Part shown: positions 1-49,900 of the stretch, piece after piece
How positions within the stretch are numbered: position 1 is the first letter of the stretch
How the letters are laid out: the number at the start of each line of letters is the position of its first letter
Assembly (NCBI GenBank): GCA_024137785.1
Contig: JAHRHZ010000025.1
Location: 22,986,219-23,050,218 of the forward strand
Reading direction: 5' to 3'
From: Ginglymostoma cirratum
Lineage: Eukaryota
DNA: 64,000 nucleotides
The notes under the pieces: model-generated
Told to the model about the DNA's origin: nothing
Database searches by the model: none
The model's input: the letters and a program-made list of their open reading frames with translations, nothing else
Translations under genes and position numbers: made by a program

Positions 1-109
1 AGATCATTTAAGATTCTAACACCCATGTCAGTCCTTGAATCTTCCACAAACTTACAGTTTAATTGCTCCATCTTAGGAAAATTGTGACAAGCATCAGCAC
101 AAGCCTATG

Positions 110-231
110 ATAATAGAGATAACAAGGTGTAGAGCTGGATGAACACAGCAGGCCAAGTAGCATCAGAGGTGCAGGAAAGCTGACGTTTCGGGCCTTGACC
201 CTTCTTCAGAAAATCTGCAGTTCCCACTATC
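110..231 (-). mobile_element. Short non-autonomous PLE terminal-repeat element with minimal hammerhead ribozyme
   Basis: Minus strand reads TTTT-CTGAAGA-A-GGGT-CAAG-GCCC-GAAAC-GTC-AGCTTTCCTGCACCTCTGATGCT...GTTATCTC. Flanked by the 16-bp direct repeat TCAGCACAAGCCTATG (94-109, 232-247). Same family as 9027-9124, 16263-16393 and 23588-23670. Confidence 0.85.
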
Positions 232-429
232 TCAGCACAAGCCTATGCCCTGGAAAACCCCACGAGACAGCATTAATAGCAATCCTCAGGCTTGGGAAAT
301 GCAACTAATTCCTCATTTGACCCAAGTTTTGCCAGGTAATCCCAGAGTGCTCCAATTTATTGGCCTGTCAAAAATGATATTTGTGAATTCAGGTATTTGA
401 TATCAACTGGTTGAACACACCTCTTCGGC

Positions 430-3304: not shown

Positions 3305-3600
3305 ATAACCACATAAAATCCATACAGTGTGGAAGCAGGCCTTTCAGCCAATTGAGTCCACTTCGGACCTCTGAAGGGCATCCCACACAGACTCACCCTC
3401 CCTCTCCCATCGCTAATCCACCTAGTCTGCACATCTCTGGACAATATGGGCAATTCGTCCAAATCTTTGGACTATGGGAGGAAACCAGAGCAGCCAGAGG
3501 AAATCTGCACAGACATGGGGAGAATGCCCAAGGATGGAACTGAACTTGGGTCCCTGGCACTCTGAGGCAGCAATGCTAACTACTGAGCCACTGTGCCACC
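3305..3600 (-). mobile_element. HE1-type (V-SINE) tRNA-derived SINE
   Basis: Reverse complement starts GGTGGCACAGTGGCTCAGTAGTTAGCATTGCTGCCTCA (A box), then GGACCCAAGTTCA (B box), the V-domain TTCTCCCCATGTCTGTGCAGATTTCCTCTGG and a LINE-like tail. Confidence 0.85.
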
Positions 3601-9026: not shown

Positions 9027-9124
9027 TTTTTCTGATGAAGGGTTTAGGCCCGAAACGTCAAGTTTTCCTGCTCCTATGATGCTGCTTGACCTGCTGTGTT
9101 CATCCAGCCCCATGCTTGTTATCT
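9027..9124 (+). mobile_element. Short PLE terminal-repeat element with intact minimal hammerhead motif
   Basis: TTTTT-CTGATGA-A-GGGT-TTAG-GCCC-GAAAC-GTC-AAG at 9027-9062. 14-bp TSD CACCTTTTTATAGA at 9013-9026 and 9125-9138. Confidence 0.88.
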
Positions 9125-10221
9125 CACCTTTTTATAGAGATGTGCTATACATGCTGCTTAAATACTCTAATTACTTTTGACTGAAAAGTTTGGAATATTT
9201 GCATCATATTCTTCATAGTCTGAGCTAGTTTAGTTGAAAGCAATAGTTCCTGAAGCTTTTTCTATTAAGTCTATCTCCAAGATGTTGACATGTGAGAGTG
9301 TTTCGATATATTTTGTTTGATGCTCACAATGATTGACTTAAAATTATGTGGATTGAAAATACTGAAATTGGAGCCACGTGAGAACCAATTGCTGTTCACT
9401 TCTTCAGATAACTGGAGTTGCAGTAGCACTCATGAGGTTGTACTAGTTGTGGATTAATTCTCCATGAGCACATATATTTGAGCAGGGCAGTTTGAAGAGG
9501 CTCTTGGCAATTGTTTACACAACAGAATCAACAGGGAACTGGAAACTAGCTGTTTCTGTTGTGTCCTGTCTGAGAATGAATAGCACATAATGGCAAATTG
9601 CCTCAAAAGGAACAGGAAAAAATTATGATTAAGCCAATTGCATTTAATTATAATGTCTTTAAATTTACAAAAGAAAGGTTTACAGAAAGAGTTAATGCTT
9701 TCACCCTTCCAGCATTGCATTGTGCTCCTTAGAAAATTGAAAGCTGGCGTTTATTGTTAGGGGAATAGATTATAAAAGTAAGTGATGTCTTTTGTAGTTT
9801 ACTACATTAACCCACGTAACATTAACAACAAAAAACAGGTTTCTTGTGAAGCAGATGTCTTGAATTTAATTTACAGCACAAACTATTTGTACAGCTACAA
9901 TATTACAGAGCTATAAACATAGTCCGGATTCATTGCTCACTTATGTTACGTTACATCACATACACATGCCTGACTGATGAAGCTGATTCCATTACATTGA
10001 GCAATTGATTTAATACGAGGCACATACTGTGATGTCAAGTAACTGTCTCTGTCTGGTCTAGAATCAATACCAGAATGCAACAATTCTCCTTTCTCTTTTA
10101 AAAAAATGGGAATTCTGTTCTGATAACATGCAAAGATACACACACTAAGGTTTTGGAGTAGATCTGTAGCTCAGGTTGTGGGTGTTGAGGTTGGTTGGCT
10201 CGCCGAGCTAGTTTGTTGTTT

Positions 10222-10263
10222 TGCAGACGTTTCATTACCGGGCTTGGTAACATCTTCAGTGCA
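10222..10263 (-). ncRNA. Minimal type-I hammerhead ribozyme motif in the PLE 3' terminal repeat
   Basis: Minus strand: TGCA-CTGAAGA-T-GTTACC-AAGCCC-GGTAAT-GAAAC-GTC-TGCA. Helix I is TGCA/TGCA, helix II is 6 bp, the core is intact and palindromic ACGT replaces helix III. Confidence 0.85.
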
Positions 10264-10727
10264 GCCTCCGATGAGGCGTCAGTGCATTTTCCCACCTGGT
10301 TTTTAAACTCTTGGGTCCGTTGAGATGGATTGCCTCACTTCCCGTTTTCCTCCGTAGTGGAATGTATATGGGGTCGAGTTCAATATGTTTATTAATAGCA
10401 TACTTCGTGGGGTGCCATGCTTCCAGGAATTCTTGTGTTTGTCTCTGCCTAGCCTGTCCCAGGATCTTGGTGTTGTCCCAGTCAAAGTCGTGGTTCTCCT
10501 TGTCCATGTGGATTGAGATGAGTGAGTATTGGTCGTGTCTTTTTGTAGCCAGTTGGTGTTCATGTACTCTTGTTGTTAGTTTCCTTCCTGTTTGTCCGAT
10601 GTAGTGTTTCTCGCAGCCTCTGCAGGGGATCTTGTAGATGACATTGGTCCTGTCCATGGCAGGGTGTGGGTCTGTAGTTCGGGTGAGCAGTTGTCGTAGG
10701 GTTGACGTGGGCTTGTGTGCCACTCTG

Positions 10728-10827
10728 NNNNNNNNNNNNNNNNNNNNNNNNNNNNNNNNNNNNNNNNNNNNNNNNNNNNNNNNNNNNNNNNNNNNNNNNN
10801 NNNNNNNNNNNNNNNNNNNNNNNNNNN
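10728..10827. other. Assembly gap (100 N) flanked by a 183-bp false duplication
   Basis: 10545-10727 is identical to 10828-11010, so the contigs overlap across the gap. Confidence 0.93.
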
Positions 10828-12919
10828 GTAGCCAGTTGGTGTTCATGTACTCTTGTTGTTAGTTTCCTTCCTGTTTGTCCGATGTAGTGTTTCTCGCAGC
10901 CTCTGCAGGGGATCTTGTAGATGACATTGGTCCTGTCCATGGCAGGGTGTGGGTCTGTAGTTCGGGTGAGCAGTTGTCGTAGGGTTGACGTGGGCTTGTG
11001 TGCCACTCTGATGCCCAGTTGTCGTAGGAATCTTGTGGTGAGTTCCAACATGTTCCTGATGTAGGGTAGTGCGATGAGTGTGTTGGGGCATGTAGAATCT
11101 TTCTGATGCTGTTCTTGTAGGCAGCTTCTGACCCAGTTCTTTGGATATCCATTATCCTTGAACACTTGGAAGAGGTATTCCTCCTCCTCTTGGCGTAGTT
11201 CTATGTTGCTGCAGTGTGTTGTTGCCCTTTTAAATAGTGTTCGCATGCAGCTTCGTTTGTGTGTGTTGGGATGGTTACTATTGAAGTTCAGTACCTGGTC
11301 TGTGTGTGTGGCTTTTCGGTGTACTTTCGTTTAAAGTTCCCCATTTGTCTTGCGCTCTACCATGACGTCCAGGAATGCGAGTTGTGTGTTCTTCTCCTCG
11401 TCTCTGGTGAATTTTATTCCCATAAGGGTGTTGTTTATAAGTTTGTGTGTCTCTTCTAATTTGGTCCGTTTGATGATGACAAAGGTGTTGTCTACGTAGC
11501 GTATCCATAGTTTAGGTTGGATTTGCGGAAGGGCGGTCCTTTCCAGTCTTTGCATCACTGCTTCTGCTATGAGTCCGGAGACAGGCGATCCCATGGGTGT
11601 CCCGTTGAGTTGCTCATGTGTTTGGCCATTGAAGGTGAAGTGGGTGGTCAGGCATAGGTCCAATAGTTTGAGCATGTTGTCCTTGGAGATGGTTTCACTG
11701 GGGTCGTGTTCTTGTTCAAGTCGTGTTGTCATTGTTTCCCTCGCTAGTGGTATGTCTATTGATGTGAATAGGGCGGTGACATCAAACAATATCATGGTCT
11801 CTTCACCCTCTATCTTTATGTCTTTGATGGAGTTCAGGAATTCTTGGGCTGAGTGGATGGAGTGGGGTGACTTGTTGACTAGGTGCCTGAGTCTTCTTTG
11901 CAGTTCCCTGGCTAATCTGTGCAATGGAGTGCCTGGTAGGAGACTATGGGTCTGAGGGGGACTTCCAGCTTGTGCACTTTAGGGAGGCCATAGAATCGGG
12001 GTGTGTTGGTTCCTTCGGATTTCATTTTTGAGAAGTCTGTTTTGTTGATCTGTCCTGTTTGTTTAAGTCTTTGTAGCATGTAGAGGATTTTGTTGCCTAG
12101 TTGTGGCGTTGGGTCAGTCTGTACTGGTCGGTATGTGTTCTTGTTGGCGAGCAGTGCTTGTGCTTTGGAAATGTAGTCCTTTTTATTCATTATCACTGTC
12201 AGGCTCCCTTTGTCTGTGGGTAGTATCGTGATGTTCTTGTCCTTCTTTAATCTGTCCAGGGCTTGTCTTTCCCATGTGTTGAGGGTGTTGAGTTCACTCC
12301 TTCTGGTTAGTGTCGGTATTGGTCAGCATGAACAATGAAATGCTCCCTGAATAGATATATACTAAACCTTTGTCCCGAAAACTAGGTCAGGAGTCTCTTT
12401 CCATGTTGGATTGGTTAGCCTGAGTTATCATGAGGAACTAAGAACCAAGAGCAACAGACTTGTCATTTCATAGTAGACCTACTTGAGGCTTTTCCGGAAT
12501 GCATTGACTTCCAACATAGTGAGCTTGCAGGGATAATAATATTGAAAAATCCAAAACTGGATGATAGAGTATTTTTGAGAGATTGAAAAATATGTTGGTG
12601 AGCTTTCTGTTATATGTATGGCATGTTTTTGTGGAGAAGATCTCAAAAACTAATTACTGTGGTCGCAAAATTTGGAATATGTGGGGATAAAAAATTAAAT
12701 AAAGTAAATTCTGTAATCTTATATATTGTTAGGATCAGGTCTAAAACTAGTTGACGAATTGATTGAACTGAAGAAATTGATTTGGCTCATGAAGATTTGA
12801 CATTTCTTTCTGTTGAAACCAAGATCCTTCTTTGAGGCTGGTGCAGCTATGAACCAATGGAAATTTGTGTCAGATTTCCAGCATCTGCAATATTATCTTT
12901 ATTTAAGTTTTGTGACTTG

Positions 12920-14811
12920 GGCATGTCCTTCCAAGGACTGCAGTGTTAGCTGTGATGCAGAGACAATGTGGTAGGTTTTCAATAATACAATCCAGATGTT
13001 GCTGGAATATATCTTGACTGATGGATAATCCAAAGTCCACATACCAGTTGACTGTGACCTTTAAGCTGTAATATTCCCGTGACCTCTTGGACTTTGTTGA
13101 TATGCTTTTGTGCCTTGGATAGAACTTTTGTTGCTTATTTCACGTTTTCTTTGGTTAGTCCTCTTCACATGCTGCTCTGGAGCACTGTGTGGCACTTTGG
13201 GTTTCTCTGGGTAATTGGATTTATTACTTTGCCCAGTGTCCTCTTGTACAGCATGTTATGAAATGCTGAACACCATCTTGATGGATGAGACAAATCAGGT
13301 CTCATACAAGACTTGAGTATCCCACTGAATCTTTTGATGGCTGTGAGAGCTATCCCAGAGTCAATAACTTATAGACGCTACTGGTCCGCTTCAAATATGA
13401 ATCCTTCTTCTAGTAGAACGTCAATGGCATATCCGTGGTATTTGTTGAGAAATGCTTTTCTGAAGGATTCAGTGGGTGTAGAGTCAAGGATCAGTTTCTT
13501 AAGCTTTTCAGGCCATATAGCTTTGGTGAAATGACACTCCGTAGCTTTGTATTGATATCTGCCTACATGTTGCAGATAAATGGTGAACATAAATGGTTTA
13601 CCTGTTTTTGGCATAATGAACAGAGTTAGATCCATTTTTAAAATGAGGAAAGCCAACTCTACTCGGGATATCACCAAGGCCACCAGCTGCAGTAAAGCTT
13701 CCCTACTTGTTGTATTATGGCATAGATTTCAGACCATACAGGCACGTACCTTTAAGACAGTCACATGTTCTTTACTTGTTGTTGTAGCTCCAAATGTAGC
13801 AATTGGCTTCTACATTTCTTACAGTATCGTTGAAAGTTTCATGTGTGCAGGTTTTTGTTCGTAGGTGGCATTTACACCAAAAGGAAGAATGATCCTGTAT
13901 GCATATTTATTTTTAATTTCCACTCCCTTTGGAAAAAGCAAATGGCAGAATTGAGTGATGCCTGGAAAAAAGATGAGGCCTCTTTAGTATTGAATGCATT
14001 TTCTTTAATGTTTTAAAACTATATTTTCTTCTAGGAGCTCTTTCAGGTGTCCTTGCAAGACATTATGCACTTCTGTGTCAACACAGTGTGGAACTGGAGG
14101 AACACAGCAAGTCAGGCAGCATCAGAGGAACAGCAAAGTCGGGTCAGGACCCTTCATCAGAACGATATACACTTCTGGTTTCATTTTAATAGGATTAGCA
14201 CCAGTCTCCCATGTTTGTATTTTTATAAATTATATATGTACATTTTATATATATGTTTATATATAAATTTTTATAAAGAGAGAATACTCACTGATTCAGT
14301 ACAGGCTTGTAGCATTTAATTTTGGTTATCGAACTTTAGTCTTGGTTGTAGTTGTAACTTTATCTCTAACCTCAGACAGACTGATGGATGACTGGAAAAT
14401 GACTTTTCTCAACTGTCATTGCTAGAGTCAGATTTTCAGCCATGACGTCCCACTCTGTCCCAGGAGCTGTGACAGTCAGCATTTGGACTCTACTTAACGG
14501 CCACCATGCTGATATTTATGGTTTATTGTAAGTTAGCCTGTGTACTGCATATCACAAAATGTCAGGTTTTTATGAGACAGATGTGTTGACAGTTCTTTAT
14601 AAAATGACTTCAATAGTACAGGCTTACATACAGTCTGGGTTCACGATGTTATACACATACAGTTATCTGTCTATTGTAACTTCACTATGCAGAAAATGTA
14701 ATTAAAGGTGAGTTGTGTGCCCCTATGCCGGGACATCACATGTTGCGATGTCATGTGACTGTCTTAAAGGTACGTGCCTGTATGGTCTGAAATCTATGCC
14801 ATAATACAACA
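12920..14811 (-). mobile_element. Decayed Ty3/Gypsy LTR retrotransposon (5' LTR, PBS, gag, protease and RT remnants)
   Basis: Minus strand: LTR 14811-14507 (TGTTGT...AATAAA...CA), followed immediately by PBS-like TGGTGGC (14506-14500). Gag-like YRIILPFGVNATYEQK near 13860-13905; protease-region FLNKYHGYAIDVL; HINKVQEVT; RT motif FGLSISQDIFQQHLDCIIENLPHCLCITANTAVLGRT (about 13035-12925; cf. PFGLSVSQDIFQ...ADDI). Confidence 0.8.
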
Positions 14812-14900
14812 AGTAGGGAAGCTTTACTGCAGCTGGTGGCCTTGGTGATATCTCGAGTAGAGTTGGCTTTCCTTATTTTAAAAATGGATCTAACTCTGTT
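13619..14900. repeat. 149-bp inverted repeat pair (13619-13767 and 14752-14900)
   Basis: Manual comparison gives 147/149 identity in reverse complement, with a spacer of about 985 bp. Confidence 0.95.
14083..14163 (-). mobile_element. PLE terminal-repeat short element with degenerate hammerhead
   Basis: Minus strand GTT-CTGATGA-A-GGGTC-CT-GACCC-GAC...; the GAAAC-GTC segment is deleted. Family tail TGATGCTGCCTGACTTGCTGTGTTCCTCCAG is present. Confidence 0.75.
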
Positions 14901-16262: not shown

Positions 16263-16393
16263 GTTTTTCTGAAGAAGGATTCTGACACAAAACATCAACT
16301 TTCCTGCTCCTCTGATGCTGCCTGGCCTGCTATGTACCTTCAGCTCCACACCATGTTATCTCTGACTCTAGCATCTTCAGTTCTTGCTATCTC
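16263..16393 (+). mobile_element. PLE terminal-repeat short element with degenerate hammerhead
   Basis: TTTTT-CTGAAGA-AGGATTCTGACACAAAACATC-AACTTTCCTGCTCCTCTGATGCTGCCTGGCCTGCT...GTTATCTC...AGCATC. Confidence 0.8.
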
Positions 16394-18849: not shown

Positions 18850-20400
18850 CCTGAATACTTGTCCCAGCTATCATCCAACTGCTTCATCAGAACAGTGACC
18901 TTGCAAGATCTATGGCTACCATCTCACTCGACCCTCCATTCACACAAGTTGGCATCAGTAAATTACTGGCCTCACTACAACATTGTGCTTGCTCTCAGAC
19001 CAACTCAGACACCACTTCAGACCTTTCATTCTTTACTTTGGAGTTCAGGGACACCTCAGACTTGCATGCTTTTACCTGGTCACTTTGGATGGTGGGCCAT
19101 GCACATTTCTCATGCATCTACACAAGATGCTTTATTGTCCACATGGATGCGTGCATCATATGGTTCTCAGCTTGCTTCCTTAGCGTTCGCTCACTTTACC
19201 ACTTACTGAGAGACCACCAAACTCTGTATACGTCACATTTTTTTTCTTGGAGCACAAGGTCTTTAGTGCTTGATAACAGTCTGTGGCTTGCATTGCATTC
19301 TTGTGTAGAGGGAGAGGCCAGCAGATTGTGAAGGATGGGAAACACTGAACAGTCAAGGGGGTGGACATGTTTCCGTGGGGCTCCGTGCAACATCAATGTC
19401 ACACCTTCAGCATGTGCCAGAAACATATGAAGGAAACACACTGCATAAGCTTTAAGTAAATGGTCACATGCGAAAGTCAAAGGGGAGCTGTCCTTTAAGA
19501 GTTGAGGGAGAACTCAGACTGTCAGACGATACTGCCACAGTCAGTCAAGGGGTTCGTTCCACCCAGGGTTTTGGCCCTGGTCAGTCAGGTGCTTGTACTT
19601 CCAGAGTCTGAAGATCTGTGTTCTTGCAATCTAGGGAGAGGGCCTCAGTTACTCTTCCAGGTTAAGTGTAGCCAGTCTGGGGATTGGACATAGGTAAGTT
19701 GGGGTTCTGTGGAGATATCAGCCTGGTGGTTTGGGCCAGTTTTTTCCAGCACTGAAGCAGACAGAGGTTTGAGTAAGATGGGAGCGGATGAAAGATCAGT
19801 TAGTCGTGATGCATGATGTGTCCCCAGTGAGTGAATTGGAAGCCTAGATGGCAGGAGGAGTCAGTAGTTTGGGACAATGAGGTGAAAACTGCTGGGTGGA
19901 CATGAAATAAACAATACTGAGTTACAGTCCATGACCGTTGGGGAAATATGTGTATAGTGGCAAAATTAGAGTGAGCACTTGTCCTGAGAATGTGAAATTG
20001 CAGAAAGAGGGTGGTGGCACTTAGCCTTGCAAATTGCAGAAGTTCATTGATCTTCTTCCCATACTGTTGGATGTCCTGCTTCACTTGGGACATAGCACTG
20101 ACCTGGGCTGCAATTTGTGCCCAAATTGGCTGGTCTGGTGTCATGGCTTCTTGTGGCAGTTCACTGCTGTCCTGTTTACTTCTCCGTACACCAAGTTCAA
20201 ATAAGCAGGGAGCGATCTTTCTTTTCATCTGAGCCATGTTCTCGGTGATGACTTTGCAAAGCCACAGTGTGAGGAATAGTTCCTGACTTACAGCACCTGA
20301 CGTGATGCACTGTTGGGTTTTTAAATGTGCTGTGAAAGGCAGAAGGTCCCAGCAGTGGGGAACACTTCAGTCTCTCAGTCTGTAAGATTCCTCCAGTAGG
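18850..20400 (-). mobile_element. Ancient PIF/Harbinger-type transposon relic with a Myb/SANT-like ORF
   Basis: ORF 19800-20237 contains IWAQIAAQVSAMSQVKQDIQQYGKKINELLQFAR, matching the Myb/SANT-like pattern AW..IA..VSA.S...R...QC.KKFNDL. 18900-19450 is homologous in opposite orientation to 32150-32710. Confidence 0.65.
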
Positions 20401-23230: not shown

Positions 23231-23587
23231 ATTTAATAATGCAAATTGGGGTAACCATTTTTGGCAAGAATCTCAAATACTAACCTTTTTAGCTAAGGCT
23301 GAGTTGCAATAACTTTTATGAAAGGAATCTTGCTGCAAGATGTAGTGAGTTTTAATATCATATCTTAGCAAACTTGCATCACTAGCTACCCTCCCCATCC
23401 CCACGGTGTCTTCCACATCTGATTTCTGCTCCAACTTGCCAAGTAACACTTGTGAAAGAATGTGTCACTCAGCAGTTATCTGCCCTTACAGCAGCATCTC
23501 TGGTGTCTGCACCATCTTTGGAAGCTCTGGCATCTGGAAGCTGCCCGACTCATTTTTGGAGATTATGTAAAGAAATGGCTGAGAGGG

Positions 23588-23670
23588 TTAACAAGCATGG
23601 GGCTGGATGAACACAGCAGGTCAAGCAGCATCATAGGAGCAGGAAAACCTGACACCTGGGGCCTAGACCA
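23588..23670 (-). mobile_element. PLE terminal-repeat short element (partial)
   Basis: Near-identical in reverse complement to 9041-9121 (GGTCTAGGCCCC...GGTTTTCCTGCTCCTATGATGCTGCTTGACCTGCTGTGTTCATCCAGCCCCATGCTTGTTA). The hammerhead core is lost. Confidence 0.85.
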
Positions 23671-24937: not shown

Positions 24938-25246
24938 GCATAGAATCATTGATTTCCTACAGTGTGGAAGCAGGTCATTCAGCCCATTGAGTCCATACCA
25001 ACCCTCTGAAGAGCATCACTCCAGACTAACGCCTCTATCCCTGTAACTCTATATTTCGCACGGCTAACCCACCTAGCCTATACATCCCTGAACACTATGG
25101 GTAATTTGGCAATCCACCTAACCTGCAGGTTTTTGGACTGTGGGAGGAAGCCGGAGCACCCGGAGGAAACTCATGCAGACATGGGGAGAATGTGCAAACT
25201 CCATACACACAGTCACCCAAGGCTGGAATCAAACCACTGAGCCACC
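24938..25246 (-). mobile_element. HE1-type (V-SINE) SINE
   Basis: V-domain GGAGTTTGCACATTCTCCCCATGTCTGCATGAGTTTCCTCCGGGTGCTCCGGCTTCCTCCCACAGTCCAAA on the minus strand. Head partly deleted. Confidence 0.88.
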
Positions 25247-25289
25247 ATAACACCCGTGCATGGAGTGTGAAGGTGCAGCAGGGGGTTAG

Positions 25290-25600
25290 AGGAGAGCTTT
25301 GGATCACTCCTATTTGTAATGTAGATGGTAGGAGTCAATTTACCCACAGCAAGGTCTCCACAAATAGCAATATAACAATTACACAGCAGCTGTTTTAGCG
25401 ATGTTAGTTGAGAGATAGATATAGGCCAAGATACTAGAGAGCTCCCTGGTTCCACTTTGGATTAGTCATATATCTTTTAATTCCTGAGAGAGGGCCCCAG
25501 TTTAACATTTCATGTGAAAGTTGGTGCCTCCAAGAGTGCAGAGTTCCCTTGTTACTGCATAACAGTGTCGATCTAAAACTTGTGTTCAAGTCTTGACCTG
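25290..25600 (-). mobile_element. Old DeuSINE-like (SacSINE1-like) SINE
   Basis: Reverse complement is similar to 47750-48090 and 59155-59520 (GACTTGAACACAAG...GCAGTAACAAGGGAACTCTGCACT...GGCCTATATCTATCTCTCAACTAACATC). Confidence 0.6.
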
Positions 25601-25832
25601 ACTCGACCTTGCCAATATAGTCAAGAATGCTACAAGGCCAAAAATACCCAGTGTTCATGGGAACTAAGAGGATGATGATAGTGAGAACAGTGGCCCAGAG
25701 ATCCTAAAAGTAAAACTGATGAGCCCACTGTGGTAAGGTGAAAGTAGAGGTAGAATTAATCCTTTTGTCTTGGACGCATCTGAGGAGAGAGACATGTTGA
25801 CTGTGAGCACTTTATGGACAGAAGAGAGAATA

Positions 25833-26160
25833 ATCACTGAATCATGGAATCCCTACAGTGTGGAAACAGGCCCTTCAACAAGTTTACACCAACCCTCACA
25901 GCATCCCACCCAGACCCATCCCACTATAACTCACCTAATCTACACAAGCCTAAACAATGGGCAATTTAGCATGGCCAACCCACCTAGATCGCACATCTTT
26001 GGACTGTGGGAGGAGACCGGAACACCTGGAGGAAACCCATGCAGACACGGGGAGATTGTACAAACTCCACACAGACAGTCGCCCGAGGGTGGAATCGAAC
26101 TCAGGTCCCTGGCACTGTGAGGCAGCAGTGCTAACCACCGTGGGTGGCACTGTGGCGCAG
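25833..26160 (-). mobile_element. HE1-type (V-SINE) SINE with an inverted 5' tip
   Basis: Well-preserved A and B boxes (GGTGGTTAGCACTGCTGCCTCACAGTGCCAGGGACCTGAGTTCGATTCC) and V-domain. The first ~19 nt (GGGTGGCACTGTGGCGCAG, 26142-26160) lie on the opposite strand. Confidence 0.9.
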
Positions 26161-26814
26161 AGTAGGGAAAGAAATGAAGACTCCATGGAATGGGTCCTCC
26201 CCATTTACACAAATGACCTGTTTCTCCATCCACAGACGCTGCCAGGCCTGCTATGTATTTCAAGCGGCTTCTCTCATTGTTGAACCTGATGTTTCTTCTT
26301 GTGACAGCTCCAGTGTAGCTATAAGCTTCTGCTTGCAACAGACGAATTCATTTGGTAGGGATATCATAATGGCCGCTGAACAGTTCTATCGCAGTTCCTT
26401 TAAGGAGACATCTGCCCCAGGATTTCAGATTTTCTGGGATCGTCCTTTCAGATTGAAAAATCTATTGGGAAATACAACTTCCTTGGATTGTGCTACTGCA
26501 CTGAAGCTTGGAGCTTATAGCTTGATCACCTTTAGACAGCAATCGGCAAACTGACAACATCTCAATCAAGGGAATCTTCCTACCTTTATTCCAAGCAAGT
26601 GTTTATTCTTAAGTGGTGATCCTACCCAGAGTGTGCTCAATATGATTTACATGCTGCAACTCAAACACAATCTGGTTCAGTATTCAAGTGCTAAATAACA
26701 GCTGACAAAATAAGGTCATACAACATTCAAGTCCATAAATCAGCTACTTAAACAGGAGCATTTTTCAAACCAAAGACGAGAGGTGGAATTTAATTTAAAA
26801 GACAAGGGTCTCAC

Positions 26815-34847: not shown

Positions 34848-35075
34848 TTACAAAAACAGAAATTGCTGGAAAAGCCCAGCAGGTCTGCAGCATCCGTAGG
34901 GAGAAATCAGAGTTAATGTTTCGGGTTGAGTAACCCTGAGGACCCTTCTAAGGAAGGGTGACTCGACCTGAAACATTAACTCTGATTTCTCTTCACAGAT
35001 GCTACCAGATTTGCTGGGCTTTTCCAGCAATTTCTGTCTTCGTTTCTGACTTACAGCATCCGTAGTTCTTTTTGG
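34848..35075. mobile_element. Fold-back PLE terminal-repeat insertion (two inverted arms)
   Basis: Arms at about 34852-34938 and 34956-35045 are diverged reverse complements. The plus arm has a decayed hammerhead, CTAAGGA-A-GGGTG-ACTC-GACCT-GAAAC-ATT-AACT. Confidence 0.85.
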
Positions 35076-35171: not shown

Positions 35172-36732
35172 TATGCTGGGAGAAGGGGATGGGAGCTCAG
35201 AAGTGAATGGGGATGGTTTGGTAGGGGGTAGGTAGGATGGTGATAAGTGGATGCATGTGGAGATTGGTCAGTGGGAAGGTTGGGGCATTTAGGAAGATGG
35301 ACAGGTTGTGTCAGGTTAAGGAGGCGAGGATGAGAGGGAGGGTAGGACATGGGATGAGGCCAGGGGTGGGTGGAGAGATTTTGAAGCTAGTGAATTCTAT
35401 GTTGAGACCATTGGGCTGTAGGCTCCCGAGGCGCAATATAAGGAGCTGTTCCTTCAATTTTAGTGTGGCCTTATTGTGACATTGGAGGAGGACCAAGATG
35501 TACCTGTCGCCAAGGGTGTGGGAAATGGAGTTGAAATGGCTGGCAACTGGAAGGTGATGTTGATTGGAGGGTACAGAGCACAGACGCTCCACGAATTGGT
35601 CACCAAGCCTGCACTTGGTCTCTCCGATGTAGAAGAGACCACATTGGGAGCAATGGATGCAATAGACCAGGCTAGAAGACGCTCAGGTGAATCCCTGTCC
35701 GATACGGAATGGTTGTTTGGGGCCTTGGATGGAGGTGAGGGGGGAGGTGTAGGGGCAGGTGTAGCACTTCCTGTGGTTGCAGGGAAAGGTGCCAGAGGTG
35801 GTGGGGTTAGTGGGGAGTGTTGAGGGGCTGAGGGAATCATGGAGAGCGTGGTCCCTACAGAAGGCAGATAGGGGTTGGGAGGGAAATATCTCTAGGGATG
35901 TGGGGTCAGATTGTAGGTGGTGAAAGTGGCGGAGAATGATGTGTTGGATGCAGAGGTTGGTGGGGTGATATGTGAGAACCAGGGGGATCTCTGTTCTTAT
36001 TGTTGTTGGGGGGAGGGTGTTTGAGGGCAGAAGTGTGGGAAATGCAGGAGATGTAGTTGAGGGCATTATGAATCATGGGAGAGGGGAAGTTACGGTCCTT
36101 GAGGTGGGAGGACATCAGTGAGTGTCTGGGAGTGGATCACTTCATCCCAGGAGCAAACGCGGTGGAGACGGAGGAATTGGGAGTATGAGATTGCATTTTT
36201 GCAGGAGGGTGGGTGAGAAGAGGTGTAGTCAAGGTAGCTATGGGATTTGGTGAGTTTGAAATAGATGTTGGTGCTGAGTTGGTTGTTGGAGATGGAGACG
36301 GCGACAGGAAGGGAGTGAGATGTCGGAGATGGTCCAGGTGAATTTGAGGTCTGGATGAAAGGTGTTGGTGAAGTGGATGAACTGTTTGAGCTCCTCATGG
36401 GAGCATGAGGAAGTACCGATACAGTCATTGATGTAGCAGAGGAAGAGGTGAAGGATGGTGCCAGTGTAACTGCGGAAGAGGGACTGTTCCATCTATCCTA
36501 CGAAGAGGCAGGCATAGCTCAGACCCATTCGGGTGCCCATAGCCACCCCCTTGGTTTGTAGGAAGTGGGTTGAGTTAACGGAAAAGTTATTGAGGGTGAG
36601 GACAAGTTCCACCAAGCGGATGAGAGTGTAGGTGGAGGGGGACTGTTTGGACTTATAGGAGAGGAAGAAGGGGAGGGCTTTTAGGCCCCCCTCATGGGGG
36701 ATACAGGACATTCAGTCTCTCTATACCTGCAT
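35172..36732 (-). mobile_element. Penelope-like retroelement (Neptune-type), 5'-truncated and degraded
   Basis: RT: LVELVLTLNNFSVNSTHFLQTKGVAMGTRMGLSYACLFVG*, LFLCYINDCIG, SHSYLDYTSSHPPSCKNAISYSQFLRLHRVCS. Cys-rich linker GTFPCNHRKCYTCPY (a Neptune-clade feature). GIY-YIG C-terminus PVASHFNS...LKEQLLILRLGSLQPNGLNIEF. Confidence 0.92.
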
Positions 36733-37131: not shown

Positions 37132-37317
37132 AGTCAATAAATATGGAGCTGAAAAAGCGCAGCAGGTCAGCCAGCATCTGAGGAGCAGGGAAGTCAATGT
37201 TTTGGGCCAGAAATGTTGACTTCCCTGCTCCTTGGATGCTGTCTGACCTGGTGTACTTTTTCTGCCCCACATTTATGTTCTCTAGCTTCCAGCATCTGCA
37301 GTCCTTACTGCCTCCAA
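37132..37317. mobile_element. Fold-back PLE terminal-repeat insertion with TSD
   Basis: Inverted arms at about 37137-37203 and 37210-37276. Imperfect TSD GCTATTGA(C/T)TGG at 37120-37131 and 37318-37329. Confidence 0.82.
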
Positions 37318-38065
37318 GCTATTGATTGGGCCTTTGTGACATTCTACAGCTAATTGCAAAGTGCATATTTGGACTGGGATTATAAAGATTTTCATTCAGT
37401 ATATGTGCAGTTCTATTGCAATGATAAACCTCATCTCTTGAAGGTAGATTCACAGCATACTGGGCAATATTGTGAATTTTTGATGCTTCGTCGATCTGTT
37501 ATTTTCAGTTTCAAAAACAAAAAAAAAAGCAAGGTCAGGATGACTTCTGGGTGACAAGGGAAACCTATTGTGATGGGCTATGGCTCCTCTTCATTGGACT
37601 GTCAATACTGCACAGGACCCCACAAGCTACCACAACGCTAAGCACTGAACAAGCAATTGGGTCAAAAGATGTCTTTGGCTTCTGTTTAGATCCAGGATAA
37701 CTCATGGTCTGCACCCTACATGTGGTTTGAACTGAGCTAGTGTGATGTGTACTTCTAAAAACAGGAAAGGATTAATGACCAAGTTTTCTGTGGTTGCCAG
37801 AGATTGGATCACTCTGCTGATGCTGTAGCCCTTAAAGTACAAGAAGTAGGTGCAGAGTAAAATGTTTCGATAGACATTTCAGAGATAGATTCATTTGATG
37901 CATTTCTACAAATGAATATCACTCAAATACATACTGCCTACAAATAAATCCTTAAAATATGCAAAATAAAAACCAAAAGAGCTGCGGATGCTGTAAATCA
38001 GGAACAAAAACAAAGTTGCTGGAAAAGCTCAGCAGGTCTGGCAGCAACTGTGGAGGAGAAAACAG

Positions 38066-38103
38066 AGTTAACGTTGCGGGTCCTGTGACCCTTCCTCAGA
38101 ACT
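38066..38103 (-). ncRNA. Minimal hammerhead motif (one core mutation) in the Neptune terminal repeat
   Basis: AGTT-CTGAGGA-A-GGGTC-ACAG-GACCC-GCAAC-GTT-AACT. The inverted copy (38758-38795) reads AGTT-TTGAGGA-A-GGGTC-ACCG-GACCC-GAAAT-GTT-AACT. The consensus of the two is an intact core. Confidence 0.75.
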
Positions 38104-38630
38104 GATGGTGGCTGGGAAAACCTCAGTTTATATGTAGAAAATAGTGAGGTGGGTGGGCTAGGGATTAAACAATAGGATAGAGCCCAAAGAGAGAGAAAGA
38201 CAGTTGGACAGACAAAGGAGTTGCTAACGATCAGGCTGGGAGGGTGAATAGTTGTTAATGGGGACTGTTAGTGACTAACAACAGGGGGTGTGTAGTGGCA
38301 GGCTATGTGGTAACAAGGCCTGGTGTGTGGGGTGGGGGGCTGGGACATGGGAGAGTTTAGGCCCTAAAATTATTGAACTCAATATTGAGTCCGGAGTGCT
38401 GAAGGGCCCCAAGCGGAAAATGAGGTGTTGTTCCTCCAGCTTGCGCTGGGCTTTACTGGAACACTGTAGCAAGCCGGAGACAGAGATGTTGGCCAGGGAG
38501 CAGGGTGGTACATTGAAGTGGCAGGTAACAGGTAGTTCAGGGTCTTTTTTGCGAGCAGAATGTAGATGTTCTGCAAAGCGGTCGCCAAGTCTACGCTTCG
38601 TTTCCCCAGTGTAGAGGAGACCACATTGTG

Positions 38631-38722
38631 CTCCTATGATGCTGCGTGACCTGCTGTGTTCATCCAGCCCCATGCTTGTTATCTCAGATTCTCCAGCATC
38701 TGCAGTACCTTTTATCTCTGAT
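38631..38722 (+). mobile_element. Short PLE terminal-repeat element nested in the GIY-YIG coding region
   Basis: CTCCTATGATGCTGCGTGACCTGCTGTGTTCATCCAGCCCCATGCTTGTTATCTCAGATTCTCCAGCATCTGCAG. 8-bp TSD ACATTGTG at 38623-38630 and 38723-38730 splits the CSQC codons. Confidence 0.88.
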
Positions 38723-39712
38723 ACATTGTGAGCATTGTGGTTTTCCCAGCCACCACCAGTTTTGAGGAAGGGTCACCGGACCCGAAATGTTAACTCTGTT
38801 TTCTCCTCCACAGATGCTGCCAGACCTGCTGAGCTTTTCCAGCAACTTTGTTTTTGTTCCTTAAAATATACATATCCCTTGCATTCTGTTCAAAATCACA
38901 GGTCAAGGGGCCAAATAATTAACGATATATCCTTTGTCCTTGCTGATATACCTGCAGCAGCTGTTGGTCTCGAGCTTGAGGTGACCTGTGTCTGTGAGTC
39001 AGCTCTATACACTGAGCATACGTTCAGCCTGATGGAGCTCTCAATACAATTCTGTTCTGATCATCATCACCTTCGCCTTGAAAGCAGGAACTGGAATTTT
39101 TAGCCCATCTAGGTTGCCTTGTCATATCAGAGTCATTGTGGTTTGCATAATATCCTTACCCTTCAAAGCTGGCTAATTACACTAATTCTGAGCCACTTTA
39201 AAGAATTTTGCAAGTATTGAGCCATCCTTTACAAATATTCCAGTGAGTTATAATTTATAAACCTCATTTGGCTCTGTCCTGATGTACACACCTTTGTAAC
39301 TACACAACCTTTATCCTATTTTAGGCCACTCAAGGGCCTGCAGTTCTGTAACGTCCTTTTACTCAGTCTCAGTCCATATTAGTTCCTCATCAACATTATC
39401 TGGGCTAGTCCATGCAAGGGAGAAGTCGAGTTCTCACAATGTTGCTTTTTTCCAACTTAAAGATCCCACACAAGCAAAATAGTACCAATAATAGAGATTG
39501 AAGAATAAATATGGAAATTGGGCTTCCTGTGGAAAAGTGACCTCTCTGTTCCTTCCTACCTCCTGTGAAGGCTTCCCACGCTAAATCTGAGAGTTTAGAA
39601 GTGTTCTATTTGACCTGCTGCTCCATTGAGCTGATCCTCCTGCTTAGAAGCTCTTTCACAGCCACTTTGAGCTACTGTTACACTCTTGTGACACACTTGA
39701 GACTCTTGCAAG

Positions 39713-41716: not shown

Positions 41717-42860
41717 TGGGTGGGACTGTGGCACAGTGGTTAGTAATGCTGCCTCACAATGCCAGGGACTTGGGTTTGATTCCAGCCATGCGTGGCTGTC
41801 TGTGTGGAGTTTCCAAGTTCTCCCCGTGTCTGTGTGGGCTTCCTCTGGGTGCTCTGGTTTCCTCCTACAGTCCAAAGATGGGCAGGCTAGGTGGATTGGC
41901 CATGCTAAATTGCTCCGTAGTGTCTAGAGATGTGCAGGCTAGGTTGATTAACCAGGATGGCACAGAGGTGTCTCCTGTATGGGCTGCTGCAGCACTGTCT
42001 TCATTTGATGCTTTTGGACATGCCTTGGTGTGCCATTTTGGCCTCCAGTGGTGGAGATCCCCAATGGAAAGGCCCTATACATAGGGGTTCTCCCCTTTTC
42101 CATTAGGGATCTGGGGTGGAGAGTGCTGCATGCAGAGGGTCCTGTGCAACTGCAGTTTGCATCATTTCACCAGGTGCCTAGCCACATGCTGTTTTCGTGG
42201 GCTGGATGAGATTGTGTTCCATGTTTATGTCACGTGTTCGTGTTTCCAGCTCCTCTTTAGGTATTTGAAGGGGCTGCTCCTTATGTTTTGGTTACACTTC
42301 GGACCCATGCTCCTGATCTACTAGCACATGGTGTGGGCAGGGGCAAACCAGTCAAGTGGCCTTCTCGTGGTTCTGCTCCTGGGCCTGGCCATGCTGGCCA
42401 TCAACAGGTCCAGTCAGTGGGCCATGGAGGGGCTTGTTCCTGACTGTCTGTTCCTCTTTTATGGTTATGTCCGTGCTCGGGTGTCCCTGGAAAGGGAGCA
42501 TACGGTGCTCACTGGCACAGTCAAGGCTTGTCAAGACCAATGACACCTTGGGGGCTGGAGTGCCTCATTGGCCCAGATGGTATCATTCTGATTTAGTAAG
42601 GTTCTGTAAGTTTCCATTTGACATCTTTGTTTGTGTTTGATTTTAAAACAACGCCCCTGCAAAGGCTGTTACACTACTATTCATTTTTGGATTCCCTGAA
42701 CAAATCTAGGGAGATTTATTCTGTCTTTTAACCCCTTGTTGTCCCTGTTCCTGGAGTGTTTAATGGAGGCAGTTCAAAAGAGTTGGGATGCTCTTCGGAG
42801 GGCCGTCGCAAACTCAATGGGACGAATGGTCTCTATCTGCACTGCAGGGATTCTATGAAT
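41717..42860 (+). mobile_element. HE1-type SINE split by a Tx1 insertion (41717-41953 and 42783-42860)
   Basis: The 5' part has A/B boxes and the V-domain. The SINE tail GGGATGCTCTTCGGAGGG...AATGGTCTCTATCTGCACTGCAGGGATTCTATGAATC resumes at about 42783. Confidence 0.85.
41955..42782 (+). mobile_element. Tx1/L1-clade non-LTR retrotransposon, ORF2 C-terminus and 3' UTR
   Basis: LLYGLLQH...DMPWCAIL...PQWK...IRDLGWRVLH...CCFRGLDEIVFHVYVTC (zf-RVT-like C..C...E...H...C)...LLLGLAMLAINRS...YVRARVSLEREH. Confidence 0.85.
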
Positions 42861-49767: not shown

Positions 49768-49900
49768 AGTTTTGAAGAAGGGTTATTTGAACATGCAAAG
49801 TTAACTCTATCTCTTTCCACAGATGCTGCCAGATCTGCTGAATTTCTCCAACAATTTCAGGTTTTGTTTCAGATTCCCAGCATCCACAGCTCTTTCTTTT
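49768..49900 (+). mobile_element. Old PLE terminal-repeat short element with decayed hammerhead
   Basis: AGTTTTGAAGAAGGGTTA...GTTAACTCT...CCACAGATGCTGCCAGATCTGCTGAATTTCTCCAAC...TTTCAGATTCCCAGCATC. Confidence 0.75.

Follow-up and report, generated by a model that had tools for sequence, protein, structure and literature searches.

The reverse transcriptase (RT) of PAc, a Poseidon Penelope-like element (PLE) of Anolis, starts internally on its RNA, primes on both strands, needs RNA downstream of its start sites and uses uncut RNA, according to the accessible text of PMC11167929. For EN+ PLEs such as Adineta Pen2a, the available parts of PMC3846280 and PMC8557442 describe insertions with head-to-head arms, a one-sided tail, partial tandems and solo pseudo-LTRs (pLTRs), with target-site duplications (TSDs) of ~8-10 bp or more and an optional 30-40-bp tail. 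Minimal hammerhead ribozymes of metazoan PLEs occur mostly as single motifs "probably related to truncated PLEs", together with some opposite-strand pairs (PMC4209133, in the portion available). Non-LTR retrozymes are in turn derived from pLTRs, and the accessible portions of PMC7229834 and bioRxiv 10.64898/2026.07.22.740005 describe them as hammerhead-bearing and non-coding, with long TSDs. The insertion layout (inverted pLTR, one-sided tail, TSD), solo and opposite-strand hammerheads and pLTR-derived retrozymes have therefore already been published, as far as these sources are available.

Here we analysed a stretch of 64,000 nucleotides from the nurse shark Ginglymostoma cirratum (hereafter the window), together with a genome sample, and found short PLE insertions of 100-130 bases ("minis") from two families, A and B, that share all of the above traits of EN+ PLE insertions. 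They also share with retrozymes the pLTR origin, the hammerhead, the missing coding capacity and the long TSDs, and with metazoan PLE hammerheads the core, a bulged base, a G-C closing pair and the palindromic 15.2-16.2 pair. As in PAc, two putative RT start sites bound the tail, both strands appear to be primed and uncut hammerhead appears to be copied. There are also differences. The PAc ORF starts within the hammerhead, whereas the likely start codon of family A coding copies lies ~167 nt behind the core start; and PAc is a Poseidon element, whereas family A has the Zn-finger linker of Neptune and Nematis. Truncation at the 5' end is variable in the EN+ PLEs of PMC3846280 and PMC8557442, as far as described in the available text, whereas about half of the arms here stop at one base, and family A further differs from them in its estimated 4.6e5 insertions. 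Family A has a helix I of 2-3 bp and family B one of 4 bp (both read from sequence), compared with 4-5 bp in the descriptor families of PMC4209133. Unlike retrozymes, which form head-to-tail tandems of 150-450-bp units each with a hammerhead, the minis form none, and they end at RT start sites and a fixed 5' base rather than at cleavage sites. Run-off stubs are not described for PAc in the available text of PMC11167929, and neither a fixed run-off end nor a strong-stop model for PLEs turned up in a literature search whose scope did not extend to subscription papers and Repbase notes.

Nine module copies in the window

An earlier note on this DNA had listed nine insertions consisting only of a PLE terminal module, as members of one ribozyme-bearing family. 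All nine are indeed copies of such a module, but they are not one family, and some are compound or lack the ribozyme. Family A comprises the copies listed at 110, 9027, 14083, 16263, 23588, 37132 and 38631, and family B those at 34848 and 49768. The CUGANGA...GAAAC-GUC core is intact in exactly two of the nine (182-209 on the minus strand and 9032-9059 on the plus strand), the number given in the note, and its TSDs of 8-16 bp could be found for six of the nine. At 23588, 34848 and 49768 the search gave no clear TSD, with only a weak 9-nt repeat at 34848. Three motifs of core plus stem II were present in the window, compared with a mean of 0.01 in 100 shuffles of dinucleotide blocks; the third (10226-10259) is part of a separate PLE of a family C. 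A scan with Rfam called no hammerhead family at these motif sites, and its mir-1253 matches at 37159-37254 were rejected as the palindrome found there.

The first insertion consists of a single arm and an inverted tail piece (110-231). Its family A arm (110-213, minus strand) extends from a T-run just before the hammerhead core to a short 3' site (S1) followed by a 6-nt extension, and contains an intact minimal core (182-209, minus strand) with predicted cleavage after 182 and, in the pairing read from sequence, a helix I of only 2 bp. The inverted second arm (213-231, plus strand) is limited to the last ~19 nt of the tail, ends at a long 3' site (S2) and is joined to the first via a shared AT. 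The whole is flanked by a 16-bp TSD, whose left copy (94-109) matches the right copy (232-247) exactly.

The second intact core lies in a family A single arm (9027-9124, plus strand) that extends from the front edge to S1 within a 14-bp TSD (9013-9026/9125-9138). Two arms of the same family are older: one with an S1 end (14080-14163, minus strand), its core broken by a deletion and its 12-bp TSD with one mismatch (14064/14166), and a tailed one reaching from the front edge to S2 (16263-16393, plus strand) with a decayed core and an 11-bp TSD with one mismatch (16246/16396). Another two begin inside or behind the ribozyme, namely an S1-ended arm starting at +10 within helix II (23584-23669, minus strand, TSD not found) and an S2-ended arm starting at +38, hence without ribozyme (38629-38722, plus strand, 8-bp TSD at 38623/38723 by eye), which sits in the endonuclease remnant of a family B copy. 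Two head-to-head arms make up each of the paired insertions, an older family A pair (37132-37317) with an S1 and an S2 arm, no intact core and a 12-bp TSD with one mismatch (37120/37318), and a family B pair (34848-35075) with an S1 arm from +8 and an S2 arm from -1. The remaining family B copy (49768-49900, plus strand) is a single arm that starts exactly at an initiator-like A and ends at S2, with no clear TSD.

Other repeats occur in the window. A decayed family B fragment at 26207-26290 was absent from the note's list. The insertion at 14080 is flanked by 149-bp inverted repeats (13619-13767 and 14752-14900, 99% complementary, 984 bp apart), which likely represent a young non-autonomous DNA transposon. 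Dispersed copies of another family, which we take to resemble a tRNA-derived SINE, lie at 3312-3583, 24947-26142 and 41732-41954.

Coding elements that share the module

The family A module is not confined to short copies. In copy L102 it ends a 598-aa open RT-EN frame that matches RVT_1 with 30.6 bits (cut-off 29.6) and then, more weakly, GIY-YIG; in copy L067 the GIY-YIG match is above cut-off (22.9 against 22.6). The single ORF with RT and C-terminal GIY-YIG of EN+ PLEs is thus present. Translations of L102, L067 and L111 contain a CX4CxxC Zn-finger linker between RT and EN, and a CX2-5CxxC linker is a mark of the Neptune and Nematis clades in the available text of PMC8557442. The element is therefore a putative Neptune/Nematis-type PLE, the Neptune label being drawn from the linker. 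A PDB sequence search with the RT-EN frame returned no matches. In tandem copies the module continues through a 34-nt tail (+95 to +128, counted from the C of CUGANGA as +1) into the ORF. One such copy, L253, is a partial tandem with a unit of 2,941 bp, forming pLTRs, and a search for a second tail-ORF junction in the L148 stretch gave no match. Partial tandem pLTRs, a 30-40-bp tail and an inverted 5' copy, which belong to the layout of EN+ PLEs, are present.

Related bodies also lie in the window. A decayed RT-EN body (35312-36707, minus strand) is related to family A, with 74% identity to L102. A 5'-truncated family B PLE (37970-38861, minus strand) retains an endonuclease remnant, a 3' UTR with a TATA box at 38127-38132, an initiator-like A at 38103, pLTR, tail and an inverted pLTR arm (to 38861) within a 15-bp TSD with one mismatch. 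Its endonuclease remnant had no Pfam match, but at the DNA level it is 67% identical to the corresponding part of L102. The family C element (10147-12310, minus strand) has an RT (RVT_1, E 4.4e-10), an endonuclease region and its own hammerhead (10226-10259), and served as a control. It is without the Zn linker, the helix II of its hammerhead is longer and its helix I measures 4 bp; a 183-bp duplication around an N gap (10545-11010) looks like an assembly overlap. A GIY-YIG hint at 19803-20366 (E 0.08) was on inspection not a PLE. The 188-aa frame there has a weak Myb/SANT-like match (E 0.05) and is possibly a Harbinger-type transposon remnant.

Ends of the copies across the genome

The genome sample consisted of 159 ten-kb stretches taken at round coordinates of the 4.36-Gb genome. 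Its 961,013 usable bases make up ~60% of those drawn, 58 stretches contributing none. It yielded, window included, 167 module matches, of which 136 arms had at least 78% identity to a family A module, 131 lying outside the window, and 31 weaker ones were left out. The 131 arms form 102 insertions, which extrapolates to ~4.6e5 family A insertions genome-wide if the unusable DNA resembles the usable. This bears out the great abundance claimed earlier, and far exceeds the 4,000-9,000 copies given for coelacanth and frog in the available part of PMC4209133.

The earlier note had reasoned that random 5' ends would mark the copies as plain truncated PLEs. Instead, 32 of the 61 arms reaching +1 stop between -5 and +1 (103 usable arms of 131; 28 dropped for N or edge). 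The stop rate is ~10% per nucleotide from -5 to +1, 2.4% from +2 to +10 and 0.1-0.7% elsewhere. Another 27 arms continue more than 30 nt into the body, eight of them up to the 700-nt alignment limit, and only 2 of 87 stop at the hammerhead cleavage site. The stop is repeated in family B (33 of 48) and absent from family C (0 of 9). At the front edge the T-run comprises three T's in 26 of 27 long copies and four to nine in 10 of 26 minis; such extra T's would fit untemplated additions at run-off.

Upstream modules, those followed by the ORF, behave differently. Among 30 such copies, 18 reach +1 and the stop occurs in two (for four alignments with a wrong anchor, visual inspection placed the start within the module; two copies had N upstream), compared with 32 of 61 above (Fisher P = 0.002; P = 0.02 with young arms only). 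Likewise, all five inverted arms abutting long copies pass the front-edge site; three of the nine inverted arms in that check do stop there, and those lie 600-1,000 bp from the junction. Given that upstream modules and abutting inverted arms read through, the front-edge site is not an intrinsic barrier. The stubs therefore likely come from RNA beginning at the front edge, and the long copies from RNA not ending there, or from a jump.

The fixed end corresponds to an A three bases before the core, which, compared with the initiator consensus, has an initiator-like context in both families A and B. Of 29 body-linked family A copies, 25 have a TATA-like hexamer at -30 to -32, no second one occurring in the L253 unit, and family B has a TATA-like box at -29/-31 in the window copy and at three of five other loci. 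Since copies sharing these elements share ancestry, the independent evidence amounts to two families. The box, ~31 nt upstream, falls outside the minis. Three long copies of an older subfamily (L093, L128, L193) have a different upstream sequence and no TATA-like box at -31, and this subfamily nevertheless consists mostly of minis (17 of 20). These three copies resemble the product of a 26-nt deletion between two short direct repeats, and a TATA-like word abuts their core.

The 3' ends are restricted as well. Among 129 usable ends, 47 lie at S1 (+88 to +102), 64 at S2 (+122 to +140) and 18 elsewhere, so that 111 of 129 fall at two sites 34 nt apart; none of the 131 arms has a 3' end past +139. 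Direct repeats of at least 9 bp bracket 37 of 89 inserts (with the stricter settings of the control, 22 of 89), compared with 3.4% of shuffled flank pairs. Among short inserts alone they flank 23 of 51 (9-18 bp).

Of 29 head-to-head pairs, 21 combine one S1 and one S2 end, three are like-ended and five are unclassable (21 of 24, P = 1.4e-4). The arm with the greater 5' reach may carry either of the two ends, and junctions vary from locus to locus. This suggests that both target ends prime on RNA and that each pair is made anew. An antisense reading, in which the T-run is a poly-A tail primed first, was rejected since S1 and S2 ends abut the TSDs while T-run ends meet in the middle of head-to-head inserts. 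A pure fold-back origin of the second arm was rejected as a rule, given that in many pairs the tail is on the shorter arm. With regard to an origin of both arms from one molecule, rare letters are common to the arms of a pair in 7 of 57 cases, compared with 1.6 of 55; the similarity within pairs (0.91) does not exceed that to other loci (0.93-0.96).

A 4-6-nt extension resembling the end of the tail recurs after S1 (window 110-115, L005, L006, L010, L012-L015, L018, L020, L024, L026, L030). The three tandem copies searched held no template for its 6-nt form; S1 and S2 share a 6-nt word. The extension may reflect synthesis that began at S2, aborted and then realigned to S1, reminiscent of telomerase translocation. 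In L017, L022 and L027 the inserts contain more than two alternating arms, and in L022 a 25-nt junction spacer recurs as its own reverse complement, suggesting repeated fold-back copying.

Origin of the short copies

The insertions are genuine. The minis are terminal pLTRs, with or without tail, of PLEs with RT and GIY-YIG, and on the best reading they do not form a separate ribozyme family. How they are made is probably explained by run-off: because PLE RT starts internally (PMC11167929, in the text available), minis are best viewed as cDNAs begun near the 5' end of the mRNA that end at its predicted transcription start. RNA polymerase II would initiate three bases ahead of the core, at the A (initiator at +1, TATA-like box at -31), and the mRNA would accordingly be headed by the upstream pLTR. 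This start site is predicted from consensus matches to TATA and initiator. The endonuclease would nick both target strands, and each end would prime a cDNA at S1 or S2, a step known from PAc in vitro, with the RT presumably bound downstream of the tail, as established for PAc. The Poseidon biochemistry would thus be carried over by analogy to the elements of families A and B. Some 97 or 131 nt further on, the cDNAs would run off the RNA 5' end, often gaining extra A's. They would then be joined to one another or to the target, giving single or head-to-head insertions, with the TSD produced by the staggered cut. The hammerhead of a mini would be a passenger copied from uncut RNA. Lacking both the TATA box and any RNA beyond the tail, such stubs would be dead on arrival.

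This scheme has a consequence for long copies. A linear mRNA predicts a stop in the upstream module as well, which is rare (2 of 18), so that a second template type must be assumed. Long copies would accordingly come from templates without a 5' end at that site: a read-through tandem RNA, a circle made by the ribozyme, or a template jump to the 3' pLTR.

In retroviruses, minus-strand strong-stop DNA arises when RT, primed by a tRNA, starts near the RNA 5' end and runs off, the copied sequence being repeated at the RNA 3' end. PLEs could conceivably replicate in a similar manner, a proposal we advance tentatively and rate below even chances: RT would start 100-130 nt from the capped 5' end, about half of the attempts would end as integrated stubs, and a whole element with promoter-bearing pLTRs would require either a jump of the cDNA to the 3' pLTR or an mRNA circularised by the two hammerheads. 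Unlike retroviral strong-stop DNA, the PLE stubs would be primed by target DNA and the short product itself integrated, and strand transfer is only hypothesised. If true, this would explain how pLTRs are regenerated, for which a mechanism has been missing, and would give the ribozyme a function. The stubs, present in the hundreds of thousands, would record RT start sites and the template end. Terminal and upstream modules differ in a way that points to two template types, which makes the strong-stop, template-jump and circle models directly testable.

The earlier note had instead proposed a ribozyme-headed, SINE-like family moved in trans by PLE proteins. Its PLE terminal module, its minimal hammerhead and its RT/GIY-YIG mover hold; the separate family and the movement in trans are not supported, since the same module and subfamilies also end RT-EN-coding copies and the minis form no clade. 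On a tree joining 44 minis with 29 long copies (98 columns, weakly resolved), the label changed 21 times, compared with 23.1 when labels were shuffled (97 of 500 shuffles as low), and every large group mixes minis and long copies. No letter was confined to minis (at least 4 of 44, absent from the 29 long copies) except in one terminal column. The minis thus have the fixed 5' end and TSD of a SINE but, on this low-resolution tree, no lineage of their own.

A true non-autonomous family, in which tailed minis with internal promoter and RT-binding site would be transcribed from their first base and re-mobilised in trans, is unlikely on balance. Besides the fixed end and TSDs, it would account for a stop specific to terminal modules and for the uneven share of minis among subfamilies (17 of 20 in the older group, ~13 of 30 elsewhere). 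Minis might indeed be transcribed from an internal promoter, by analogy with Drosophila virilis Penelope, whose internal, TATA-less promoter is the only dissected one of a PLE (PMC2377424, in the part available), and Adineta pLTRs acted in trans according to the available text of PMC3846280. Against this stand the locus-specific head-to-head junctions and the failure of minis to include the TATA-like box or any RNA downstream of the tail, while PAc requires RNA beyond its RT start sites (PMC11167929, accessible text). Viewed as an element family, the minis amount to ordinary debris, and the appropriate annotation is solo pLTR rather than ribozyme SINE.

We consider it similarly improbable that the minis are plain truncations on long templates whose fixed end marks RT arrest or an RNA-processing site at the front edge of the hammerhead. 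The stop does coincide with the 5' strand of helix I in families A and B, truncations are continuous on both sides of it, and the older subfamily lacks the TATA-like box. Nevertheless, 16 of 18 upstream modules and all five inverted arms abutting long copies are read through, family C has a hammerhead yet no stop, and a helix should presumably block RT on its 3' side, not at its 5' edge.

Ribozyme cleavage as the process that sets the mini ends is not supported. A minimal type I set of boxes (CUGANGA, GAAA, NUH) with helix II forms a core that is intact in 19 of 44 minis, compared with 19 of 29 long copies, and MFE folding of the leader did not return the hammerhead fold. Non-LTR retrozyme monomers, that is ribozyme-cut, circularised small RNAs re-integrated by PLE RT, are a very remote prospect: a pLTR origin and presence in a chondrichthyan are on record for retrozymes (bioRxiv 10.64898/2026.07.22.740005, available part) and the core is identical between subfamily majorities, but TRF and a neighbour check found no head-to-tail module repeat among 136 arms, the ends are not at the cleavage site, helix I of family A has 2-3 bp and the core is broken in 25 of 44 minis.

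The note had also expected the core to be better conserved than its surroundings. In minis the core (22/448) is not kept significantly better than the rest of the module (200/2909, P = 0.13), while in long copies the comparison gives 7/319 versus 111/1899 (P = 0.0045); as the subfamily sorting behind both tests is crude (8 "old" rows versus ~20 on the tree), neither shows selection after insertion. Between the subfamily majorities, 0 of 12 core positions differ compared with 15 of 81 others, and this invariance fits selection in the source elements.
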